Source: a virus (Duplodnaviria; Heunggongvirae; Uroviricota; Caudoviricetes). From it: a stretch of 4,340 bases of DNA. The notes under the pieces are model-generated. The model was given only the letters and a program-made list of their open reading frames with translations. It was not told the DNA's origin and did not search any database. Positions 54-3,974 of the stretch are shown here, one piece after another (position 1 is the stretch's first letter; every line of letters begins with the position of its first letter). Position numbers and translations under genes: made by a program. The stretch lies in IMG/VR virus record IMGVR_UViG_3300029376_000268; one strand, 5' to 3'.

Positions 54-1448
54 ATGCCATTTAAAAAACTCTCCCGACGCACCTTCCTGACGGCAAGCTC
101 GGCGCTTGCCTTCCTCCATACCCCTTTCGCTCGCGCGCTTCCCGCCCGACAAATCGTTAACATTAACGACTACAACCCACACGACTGGATCGCCTCATTT
201 AAACAAGCCTTCAGCGAAGGGCAAACGGTCGTCGTGCCTGCCGGATTCGTTTGTGAAAATATCAACACCGGCATCTTCATTCCTCCTGGCAAAACGTTGC
301 ACATCCTTGGAAGCCTGCGCGGCAACGGCAGAGGGCGATTTGTCTTACAGGACGGCAGCCAGGTGACAGGGGAGAAGGGCGGCCGTATGCATAACATCAC
401 CCTGGATGTGCGCGGCTCTGACTGCATCATCAAAGGGTTGGCGATGAGCGGTTTTGGCCCGGTAACGCAGATTTATATCGGCGGCAAAAATAAACGCGTC
501 ATGCGCAACTTGACCATCGATAACCTGACCGTCAGCCACGCTAATTACGCCATTTTACGCCAGGGATTTCATAACCAGATTATCGGTGCCAACATCACCA
601 ATTGTAAGTTCAGCGACTTACAGGGCGACGCCATTGAATGGAATGTAGCAATCAATGATCGCGACATTTTGATATCCGACCATGTCATCGAGCGCATCAA
701 CTGTACTAACGGCAAAATCAACTGGGGCATTGGCATAGGCCTTGCGGGAAGTACCTACGATAATAATTATCCGGAAAACCAGGCAGTGAAAAACTTTGTC
801 GTGGCGAATATCACGGGATCAGATTGTCGGCAACTGATCCATGTTGAAAATGGTAAACATTTTGTTATCCGTAATATCAAAGCTCGTAATATCACGCCGG
901 ATTTCAGTAAGAAAGCAGGTATTGATAACGCCACAGTTGCTATTTATGGTTGTGACAACTTTGTGATTGATAATATTGAAATGATTAATAGTGCCGGGAT
1001 GTTAATTGGCTATGGGGTAATTAAAGGCAAATATCTCTCGATACCGCAGAATTTCCGAGTGAATGATATTCAACTGGATAATACTCATCTTGCTTATAAA
1101 TTGCGCGGCATCCAAATCTCCGCCGGGAATGCTGTCTCCTTTGTGGCGCTGACTAACATTGAGATGAAGCCTGCGTCGCTTGAGCTACACAATAAACCGC
1201 AACACCTTTTTATGCGAAATATCAATGTGATGCAGGAATCCTCTGTTGGACCCGCATTGAGCATGAACTTCGACATGCGCAAAGACGTACGCGGTGTCTT
1301 TATGGCGAAAAAAGAAACACTGCTGTCACTTGCAAATGTTCATGCGATGAATGAAAAAGGACAAAGCTCCGTCGATATCGACAGGATTAATCACCATATT
1401 GTTAATGTGGAAAAGATTAACTTTAGATTGCCGGAACGGAGAGAGTAG
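54..1448 (+). CDS. wcaM: Colanic acid biosynthesis protein WcaM; predicted Tat-exported right-handed parallel beta-helix protein of unknown function
   Basis: 464-aa ORF with ATG start and a strong upstream SD. The N-terminus [28 protein letters not shown] has a twin-arginine motif (S-R-R-x-F-L), a hydrophobic core and an AxA site. The body has recurring N-[IL]-T / N-x-T motifs ([38 protein letters not shown]) typical of beta-helix asparagine ladders. Position directly upstream of galF matches the known last gene of the colanic acid cluster. Coordinates include the stop codon. Confidence 0.92.
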
Positions 1449-1562: not shown

Positions 1563-1608
1563 GCTGGCGAAAAAAATCGAACAAGCTATAATTCAGCAAC
1601 CATTTTAC

Positions 1609-1614
1609 AGGTGG
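1609..1614 (+). promoter_or_regulatory. Ribosome-binding site for galF (AGGTGG)
   Basis: AGGTGG lies 8 nt upstream of ATG 1623. This supports ATG 1623 as the true start rather than the GTG at 1611 used by the ORF track. Confidence 0.6.
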
Positions 1615-1622
1615 ATGAAATA

Positions 1623-2516
1623 ATGACGAATTTAAAAGCAGTTATTCCTGTAGCGGGTCTTGGGATGCATATGTTGCCTGCCACTAAGGCGATTCCCAAA
1701 GAGATGCTACCGATCGTCGACAAGCCAATGATTCAGTACATCGTTGACGAGATTGTGGCTGCAGGGATCAAAGAAATCCTCCTGGTAACTCACGCTTCCA
1801 AGAACGCGGTCGAAAACCACTTCGACACCTCTTATGAATTAGAATCTCTCCTTGAACAGCGCGTGAAGCGTCAACTGCTTGCGGAAGTGCAGTCCATCTG
1901 TCCACCGGGCGTGACCATTATGAACGTGCGTCAGGGCGAACCTTTAGGTTTGGGCCACTCCATTTTATGTGCACGACCTGCTATTGGTGACAACCCATTT
2001 GTCGTGGTACTGCCAGACGTTGTTATCGATGACGCCAGCGCCGACCCGCTGCGTTACAACCTTGCTGCCATGATTGCTCGTTTCAACGAAACGGGCCGCA
2101 GCCAGGTGCTGGCAAAACGTATGCCGGGTGACCTCTCTGAATACTCCGTTATTCAGACCAAAGAACCACTGGATCGTGAAGGTAAAGTCAGCCGCATTGT
2201 TGAATTTATCGAAAAACCGGATCAGCCGCAGACGCTGGACTCAGACATCATGGCCGTGGGCCGTTATGTGCTTTCTGCCGATATTTGGCCGGAACTGGAA
2301 CGTACTCAGCCTGGTGCATGGGGACGTATTCAGCTGACTGATGCCATTGCTGAGTTGGCAAAAAAACAAGCAGTTGACGCAATGCTGATGACTGGGGACA
2401 GTTACGACTGCGGAAAGAAAATGGGTTATATGCAAGCGTTTGTGAAGTATGGGCTGCGTAACCTAAAAGAAGGGGCGAAGTTCCGTAAAGGGATTGAGAA
2501 GCTGTTAAGCGAATAA
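1623..2516 (+). CDS. galF: GalF, UTP-glucose-1-phosphate uridylyltransferase paralog (GalU-like, regulatory/low-activity subunit)
   Basis: Translation from ATG 1623 gives a 297-aa protein [43 protein letters not shown]..., the sugar-nucleotidyltransferase N-terminal fold with the GalU-like motif. The G-L-G-M-H-M variant (instead of GalU G-L-G-T-R-M) and the position between the wca and rfb clusters identify galF rather than galU. The track ORF 1611..2516 starts at an in-frame GTG 4 codons upstream; ATG 1623 has the better SD spacing. Coordinates include the TAA stop. Confidence 0.93.
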
Positions 2517-2554: not shown

Positions 2555-2618
2555 ATAACGGCAGTGAAGATTAGCGGCGAAAGTAATTTGTTGCGAATTT
2601 TCCTGCCGTTGTTTTATA
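2555..2618 (+). terminator. Putative structured element or weak terminator downstream of galF: long-range inverted repeat followed by a T-rich tract
   Basis: AACGGCAG (2557-2564) is the exact reverse complement of CTGCCGTT (2603-2610), extendable to about 10 bp with one G-U pair. The 3' arm is followed by gttttatat. The roughly 38-nt loop is atypical for a rho-independent terminator, so the call is tentative. Confidence 0.25.
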
Positions 2619-2774: not shown

Positions 2775-2813
2775 CAGTGCTCTGGTAGCTGTAAAGCCAG
2801 GGGCGGTAGCGTG
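2775..2813 (+). promoter_or_regulatory. JUMPstart element (39 bp) containing the ops (operon polarity suppressor) site GGCGGTAG for RfaH-dependent antitermination
   Basis: Sequence CAGTGCTCTGGTAGCTGTAAAGCCAGGGGCGGTAGCGTG matches, as I recall it, the conserved JUMPstart found upstream of polysaccharide operons. The ops core GGCGGTAG is at 2802-2809 (extended GGCGGTAGCGTG to 2813). It lies in the untranslated leader 76 nt upstream of the rfbB start, the canonical position. Confidence 0.85.
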
Positions 2814-2888: not shown

Positions 2889-3974
2889 GTGAAAATACTT
2901 GTTACTGGTGGCGCAGGATTTATTGGTTCTGCTGTAGTTCGTCACATTATAAATGATACGCAGGATAGTGTTGTTAATGTCGATAAATTAACGTACGCCG
3001 GAAACCTGGAATCACTTGCAGATGTTTCTGATTCTGAACGCTATTTCTTTGAACATGCGGATATTTGTGATGCAGCTGCAATGGCACGGATTTTTGCTCA
3101 GCATCAGCCGGATGCAGTGATGCACCTGGCAGCTGAAAGCCATGTTGACCGTTCAATTACAGGCCCTGCGGCATTTATTGAAACCAATATTGTTGGTACT
3201 TATGTCCTTTTAGAAGCGGCTCGGAATTACTGGTCTGCACTTGATGGCGACAAGAAAAACAGCTTCCGTTTTCATCATATTTCTACTGACGAAGTCTATG
3301 GTGATTTGCCTCATCCTGACGAGGTAAATAATAAAGAAGGATTACCCTTATTTACTGAGACGACAGCCTACGCACCAAGCAGCCCTTATTCTGCATCAAA
3401 AGCGTCCAGCGATCATTTAGTCCGTGCGTGGAAACGTACCTATGGTTTACCGACCATTGTGACTAATTGCTCTAACAATTATGGTCCTTATCATTTCCCG
3501 GAAAAATTGATTCCATTGGTTATTCTGAATGCTCTGGAAGGTAAAGGATTACCTATTTATGGAAAAGGCGATCAAATTCGCGACTGGCTGTATGTTGAAG
3601 ATCATGCGCGTGCGTTATATACCGTCGTAACCGAAGGTAAAGCGGGTGAAACTTATAACATTGGTGGACACAACGAAAAGAAAAACATCGATGTAGTGCT
3701 CACTATTTGTGATTTGTTGGATGAGATTGTCCCGAAAGAGAAATCTTACCGCGAGCAAATTACTTATGTTGCCGATCGTCCGGGACACGATCGACGTTAT
3801 GCGATTGATGCTGAGAAGATTGGTCGCGAATTGGGATGGAAACCACAGGAAACGTTTGAGAGCGGGATTCGTAAAACTGTGGAATGGTATCTGTCCAATA
3901 CAAAATGGGTTGATAATGTGAAAAGTGGTGCCTATCAATCGTGGATTGAACAGAACTATGAGGGCCGCCACTAA
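2889..3974 (+). CDS. rfbB: dTDP-glucose 4,6-dehydratase (RmlB/RfbB), extended short-chain dehydrogenase/reductase family
   Basis: 361-aa ORF with a GTG start ([14 protein letters not shown]...). It has the N-terminal Rossmann NAD-binding motif TGGAGFIGS, the STDEVYG motif and the catalytic YxxxK (PYSASK). The C-terminal region (...[16 protein letters not shown]...[18 protein letters not shown]) is typical of RmlB. First gene after JUMPstart, as in E. coli/Shigella/Salmonella rfb clusters. Coordinates include the TAA stop. Confidence 0.95.

Follow-up and report, generated by a model that had tools for sequence, protein, structure and literature searches.

GalF at the Colanic Acid–O-Antigen Boundary of Escherichia coli: A Conserved Paralog of GalU in Which the M-H Loop Is Probably One of Several Lesions

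Introduction

The galF gene arose by duplication of galU, the gene for UDP-glucose pyrophosphorylase, and sits between the colanic-acid (wca) and the O-antigen (rfb) genes. The O-antigen and capsule loci on which serotyping relies have galF as the marker of their upstream edge. The hypothesis that its product acts as a regulatory subunit reportedly goes back to Marolda and Valvano in 1996.

The kinetics of the protein from Escherichia coli K-12 have been described in detail (Ebrecht et al. 2015; PMC4643126). The Vmax of GalF is 0.015 U/mg compared with 340 U/mg for GalU, and the turnover is 0.01 versus 227 per second. For UTP, the S0.5 is 360 µM in GalF and 170 µM in GalU, and for glucose-1-phosphate (Glc-1-P) it is approximately 15-fold higher in GalF. 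Relative to the tetramer, monomeric GalU is approximately 20-fold less active, and both E. coli GalF and its mutants are monomers (PMC4643126), whereas the GalF of Klebsiella pneumoniae (KpGalF) was reported to be a dimer, which is unable to form tetramers (Ramon Roth et al. 2024; PMC11796359). The activity of KpGalF amounts to 0.06% of that of UGP, and the same authors judged stable hetero-oligomers of GalF and GalU to be unlikely for Klebsiella (PMC11796359).

A paralog with a similar loss is found in the same nucleotidyltransferase superfamily: The non-catalytic large subunit of plant ADP-glucose pyrophosphorylase no longer has the loop Arg at the equivalent position (K44 in potato) and has turned into a modulatory subunit (Ballicora et al. 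2005, cited through PMC4643126). The plant large subunit regains substantial activity through one or two mutations, whereas the reversion of GalF gives only a 10-fold gain; likewise, the stable heterotetramer of the plant large subunit with its catalytic subunit is well established, whereas a complex of GalF with GalU is a hypothesis.

Here, we compare these systems with the galF gene of a 4340-base stretch of DNA, referred to as the window, for which a first-pass annotation made from the sequence alone had highlighted an M-H pair in place of the catalytic T-R motif of GalU, had attributed the very low activity of GalF to these two substitutions, and had described GalF as a presumed regulatory paralog. 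The literature does propose a regulatory role, as a hypothesis.

Results and Discussion

Genomic Setting and Assignment of the Gene

The window is 100% identical to part of the chromosome of E. coli strain LC-1302-2020 (NZ_CP091756.1), and the RefSeq gene order across this identical segment is wcaL (end), wcaM, galF, rfbB, and rfbD (start). The features discussed in the following are listed in table 1. Assignment of the gene as galF is well founded: The protein scores 687.4 bits against the galF model TIGR01105 (cut-off 659.2) and 665.1 bits against NF007516 (cut-off 534), with residues 1–297 covered in both, and it stays under the cut-offs of both GalU models, with 393.1 versus 548 bits for NF009928 and 313.2 versus 326.8 bits for TIGR01099. 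Its position is also that of a galF, 3' of wcaM and 5' of the JUMPstart/ops element and the rfb genes, at the boundary of the surface-polysaccharide locus.

Table 1. Features of the window, with positions counted from its first base.
Feature	Position	Strand	Basis
wcaM	54–1448		NCBIfam WcaM, 1021 bits, above the curated cut-off
Shine-Dalgarno-like AGGTGGA	1609–1615	+	7 nt 5' of ATG 1623
galF coding sequence, 297 aa plus stop, very-low-activity GalU paralog	1623–2516	+	NCBIfam; RefSeq at the same coordinates
G14-M15-H16-M17, phosphate-binding loop of G-x-G-(T/S)-R type	1662–1673	+	Direct reading; M-H opposite GalU T20-R21
Codon S113 (GalU A118), second active-site substitution, near the uridine pocket	1959–1961	+	Alignment; coordinates as 1623+3*(113-1)
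Codon S175 (GalU G179), glucose-binding backbone position	2145–2147	+	Invariant Ser in 80 species
Codon R235 (GalU E238), charge reversal at the active-site mouth and tight-dimer contact	2325–2327	+	Invariant Arg in 80 species
Near-perfect long hairpin, then GUUUUAUAU	2555–2612	+	About 40 nt past the galF stop
JUMPstart element RF01707	2775–2813	+	Rfam, 60 bits versus gathering score 35, E 1.8e-12
rfbB	2889–3974		NCBIfam dTDP-glucose 4,6-dehydratase, 791 bits, above the curated cut-off

The closest characterized relative is the GalF of K-12 (b2042, NP_416546.1, "UTP:glucose-1-phosphate uridylyltransferase, low activity"), which shares 296 of the 297 residues, the exception being position 250 with Ser in K-12 and Ala in the window. 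M15-H16, S113, S175, and R235 are present in both proteins, and the neighborhood is also the same, with wcaM upstream and the JUMPstart element followed by rfbB downstream. As the two proteins differ at one residue only, the published K-12 values apply directly to the window protein, and we infer a UDP-glucose pyrophosphorylase activity approximately 10^4-fold under that of GalU; the very low activity that the first-pass annotation had stated for GalF is thereby in agreement with the measurements on the K-12 protein (PMC4643126). KpGalF (KP1_3726) also carries the M-H pair, as M17/H18, and the same Ser, Ser, and Arg substitutions (PMC11796359), but its gene heads the capsule (cps) locus instead of preceding an rfb O-antigen cluster. 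GalU (PDB 2E3D, 6MNU, and 4D48) belongs to the same fold family, with 58% identity between the window protein and K-12 GalU, and shares the uridine-, Mg-, and phosphate-binding residues bar the T-R pair; it differs from GalF in T20-R21, A118, G179, and E238, in being a tetramer, and in being approximately 20,000-fold more active.

The Phosphate-Binding Loop

Read from the ATG at 1623–1625, the loop has the sequence A-G-L-G-M-H-M-L-P, with codon 14 as GGG (1662–1664), codon 15 as ATG (Met, 1665–1667), codon 16 as CAT (His, 1668–1670), and codon 17 as ATG (Met, 1671–1673). M15 and H16 are thus encoded at 1665–1670 within G-L-G-M-H-M as had been noted, and the alignment (GalU structures 6mnu, 2e3d, and 4d48, and K-12 GalU) places GLGTRM opposite GLGMHM, in agreement with the proposal that this is the nucleotide-phosphate loop of the G-x-G-(T/S)-R type. 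The residue numbering rests on ATG 1623 as the start codon, which is the start annotated by RefSeq in the 100% identical genome. The program-made list of open reading frames opens at an in-frame GTG (1611–1613, + strand), four codons 5' of this ATG, giving 301 aa; this GTG is very unlikely to be the true start, because it lies inside the Shine-Dalgarno-like AGGTGGA, and its use would shift the numbering by 4. On the opposite strand, the same list contains no open reading frame of at least 50 aa at 1662–1673, and an Rfam scan found no family there.

The M-H pair is not a chance variant but is specific to GalF. Among the best 150 representatives at 50% identity, drawn from 1.8 billion proteins, it was confined to GalF-type sequences; approximately 127 of these representatives carry T-R, and a handful show other single deviations (K-R, V-R, T-G, or T-A). 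A separate query returned T-R in 118 of 119 GalU-type relatives, the remaining one being N-terminally truncated. Overall, T-R was found in the GalU structures and approximately 245 family representatives, and the GLGMH of the window protein departs from this GalU loop.

Conservation Across the Enterobacteriaceae

Conservation was assessed in the galF genes of 80 species-representative genomes of Enterobacteriaceae, covering Escherichia, Salmonella, Citrobacter, Kluyvera, Enterobacter, Kosakonia, Leclercia, Lelliottia, Phytobacter, Pseudescherichia, and other genera. Met15 is present in all of them (80/80), and position 16 is His in 72, Asn in five, Tyr in two, and Arg in one species. All seven species with Asn or Tyr belong to Kluyvera, both His codons are in use, and the lone Arg, encoded by CGC, is that of Citrobacter amalonaticus S646. 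In the best 120 clusters at 90% identity, Met is again invariant, and position 16 is His in 60, Asn in 54, Ala in three, Arg in two, and Ser in one. The signature is therefore better written as M-x, with M-H as its most frequent form, and the His is not an absolute part of it.

Natural GalF proteins with the sequence G-L-G-M-R were found at L010 3001–3891 (C. amalonaticus S646) and as proteins P0072, from Enterobacteriaceae bacterium RIT691, and P0073; M15 is kept in this form, and the L010 variant also keeps S113, S175, and R235. Ala or Ser at position 16 occurs in a few metagenomic GalF sequences.

Outside the loop, the residues A16, G17, G19, K31, E32, Q109, G114, D137, E201, K202, and D265 (GalU numbering) are invariant in the 80 species. 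The single exception among the other GalU ligand-binding residues checked is V214A, and this substitution is itself invariant in the 80 species. The three further substitutions S113, S175, and R235 are all present in the window protein, as expected for a member of GalF, and each is invariant in the 80 species. They correspond to S115, S177, and R237, the three additional active-site substitutions described for KpGalF, where S115 was proposed to hinder uridyl binding and R237 cannot make the R85–E238 salt bridge that GalU has in its tight dimer (PMC11796359).

Causes of the Low Activity

The replacement of T/R by M15/H16 is already published together with the exact mutant that the first-pass annotation had suggested as a check (Ebrecht et al. 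2015; PMC4643126), and another E. coli allele adds no novelty in this respect. The published data bear directly on the simplest explanation, namely that the pair alone accounts for the low activity, so that restoring T-R would yield a working enzyme. The exchange in the opposite direction, GalU T20M/R21H, causes a 500- to 1000-fold loss, and when GalU T20M/R21H is monomeric its activity drops to about the level of GalF (PMC4643126); KpUGP R21A retains only 4.6% of its activity (PMC11796359), and almost all members of the family carry the Arg. The restored GalF M15T/H16R, however, gains only approximately 10-fold of a deficit of approximately 2x10^4 and remains more than 1000-fold below GalU, and the authors state that the loop substitution is not the sole reason for the low activity of GalF (PMC4643126). 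Even the five-residue reversion of KpGalF (M17T/H18R/S115A/S177G/R237E), with a 27-fold gain, reaches only 1.6% of UGP/GalU activity, the inability to assemble into tetramers being a further contributor in this protein (PMC11796359), and S113, S175, and R235 persist in the natural M-R variants. We thus consider it highly improbable that the pair is the whole cause. The earlier attribution is partly supported: M15 and H16 are necessary contributors, but they are not a sufficient explanation.

A further lesion is seen in the substrate kinetics: The K198A exchange has no effect in GalF, whereas the equivalent K202A raises the S0.5 for Glc-1-P approximately 40-fold in GalU (PMC4643126). Together with the approximately 15-fold higher S0.5 of GalF for this substrate, this shows the Glc-1-P subdomain of GalF to be independently impaired.

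A mechanism can be outlined from the chemistry of the exchanged residues. In GalU, the Arg neutralizes phosphate charge and positions UTP for attack by Glc-1-P, and the Thr hydrogen-bonds the UTP gamma-phosphate, which it touches in the structures 5VE7 and 6KNJ (PMC11796359). The Met of GalF could not offer such a hydrogen bond, and the His, being shorter and mostly uncharged, would not reach or neutralize the beta- and gamma-phosphates in the way the Arg does. With Met and His replacing Thr and Arg, the chemical step would therefore be slowed while the affinity for UTP would be nearly unchanged. The remaining deficit is probably due to S113, S175, and R235, to the diverged Glc-1-P subdomain, and to the loss of the tetramer, and the lesions would jointly lower the activity about 20,000-fold.

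Selection on galF and Its Possible Function

The reading frame of galF is intact in the 80 species, and the protein is 89–100% identical across genera. Within Escherichia, dN/dS between the window gene and its orthologs (Nei–Gojobori) is 0.002–0.012 with a dS of 0.24–0.83; across genera it is 0.012–0.056, a rough estimate as dS exceeds 1 and is saturated. The window gene differs from K-12 galF at 48 nucleotides, 47 of them synonymous and one non-synonymous. Matches to galF were found in 5228 complete E. coli genomes, mostly 90–95% identical to the window allele, which is itself rare (only three of the 5228 matching records are at least 99% identical); against the species-representative genome of E. 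coli, its dS is 0.29. High synonymous diversity is thus combined with an almost unchanged protein, and this diversity fits a recombination-driven origin beside the O-antigen locus.

With more than 99.99% of its activity lost (PMC4643126), galF could be taken for a pseudogene-like relic that decays without any selected function. The conservation of the frame and the protein, a dN/dS of 0.002–0.056, and the ratio of synonymous to non-synonymous changes from K-12 speak against this to a degree that leaves the idea practically no probability. The constraint is strong and the ligand-binding pocket is preserved; galF is therefore not in decay but encodes a highly conserved protein that has a selected function.

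One candidate for this function is that of a physiologically relevant isozyme, providing a local source of UDP-glucose for the synthesis of O-antigen, colanic acid, or capsule. GalF activity is measurable and Mg-dependent, and overexpressed GalF complements a galU mutant in approximately 72 h (PMC4643126); the K. pneumoniae protein formed UDP-glucose after 4 h when a large amount of enzyme was used (PMC3134468), and the Mg- and substrate-binding residues are all conserved. Transposon mutants in K. pneumoniae galF were found in the reduced-capsule fraction (PMC6247091), although this phenotype could be a polar effect. We nevertheless regard an isozyme function as unlikely, given the turnover of 0.01 versus 227 per second and the failure of chromosomal galF to rescue galU mutants (PMC4643126). 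Furthermore, galU is present in 5423 of the 5426 complete E. coli genomes, always with at least 95% nucleotide identity, and the pyrophosphorylase function is thus not missing.

A different possibility is a new function, either on another pair of nucleotide and sugar-1-phosphate or as a pure ligand sensor, in which case M15, S113, S175, and R235 would be adaptive rather than damage. These four residues are invariant in the 80 species at a dN/dS of approximately 0.002–0.06, GalF has diverged most in its Glc-1-P subdomain (PMC4643126), and the assays described in the two main papers were limited to UTP and Glc-1-P (PMC4643126, PMC11796359). Positive evidence for another substrate is absent, however, and the uridine-binding residues are unchanged, and we hold a new function of this kind to be quite unlikely.

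GalF is best described, we believe with high confidence, as a conserved, catalytically crippled paralog of GalU that still binds ligand and in which the altered loop is one lesion among several, because the ligand-binding residues are kept and the gene is under very strong purifying selection. It is in this sense a textbook-style example of a bacterial paralog in which catalysis was lost and strong selection was kept. The selected role is probably that of modulating the supply or the use of UDP-glucose for surface polysaccharides. As a hypothesis, a role in supplying polysaccharide precursors or in controlling this supply is consistent with the position at the locus edge, with the reduced-capsule mutants, and with the intact pocket. 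More tentatively, and with odds clearly against it, we suggest that selection may act on M15, S113, S175, and R235, which are invariant and belong to a fully retained UTP/UDP-glucose pocket, rather than on the M-H pair as such, and that GalF may serve as a non-catalytic, ligand-binding sensor or adaptor; it would then couple the level of UDP-glucose (or UTP) to surface-polysaccharide synthesis. The observations that are mildly new here are the invariant M15, the variable position 16, the natural M-R forms, the intact pocket, and the dN/dS of approximately 0.002–0.06, and this pattern of conservation narrows, without answering, what GalF does in the cell.

A Degraded GalF-Like Protein and the Sequences Flanking galF

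A 295-aa GalF-like protein (P0143) is encoded at L082 8001–8888 in Citrobacter freundii (GCA_015947645.1), with 42% identity to GalF and 34% to GalU. It reads A-S-P-G-L-S in place of A-G-L-G-M-H and VLPRF in place of VLPDV, the E-K motif is gone, and it is thus without the G-x-G motif and the Mg-binding Asp. Its gene lies directly upstream of the cellulose synthase operon bcsO-bcsQ-bcsA-bcsB-bcsC, an operon which consumes UDP-glucose. The protein is a singleton in a collection of 5.8 billion proteins, in which all of its relatives are at most 41% identical. The idea of a broader family of degraded GalF-like proteins, considered on the basis of this sequence, was thus rejected; of the 119 relatives, the 118 with an N-terminus all carry T-R. 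The "GalF" of a 2026 PNAS paper stands for galactofuranose and is unrelated to the GalF protein.

Downstream of galF, the region 2517–2640 has a folding energy of -37.6 kcal/mol (z = -5.5 versus shuffles), and the hairpin within it looks like the transcription terminator of galF. An Rfam match to MIR8001 at 2551–2618 was dismissed: This is a plant microRNA model, the score was 25 bits versus a gathering score of 90, and the chance match is due to the hairpin, which is itself real. Between galF and rfbB, the JUMPstart element contains the ops sequence GGCGGTAG at 2802–2809 (+ strand). JUMPstart/ops is the usual RfaH-dependent antitermination signal that heads an O-antigen operon.

A scan of 1400–2950 for sigma-70 promoters and terminators gave sites no more numerous than in shuffled sequence. 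A perfect TATAAT, absent from the list of this consensus scan, is present at 1587–1592 (+ strand) in the wcaM–galF spacer, 31 nt 5' of the galF start, and no good -35 hexamer was found at a spacing of 16–18 nt from it. The spacer itself (174 nt) is 99.4% identical to that of K-12, whereas galF is only 94.6% identical.
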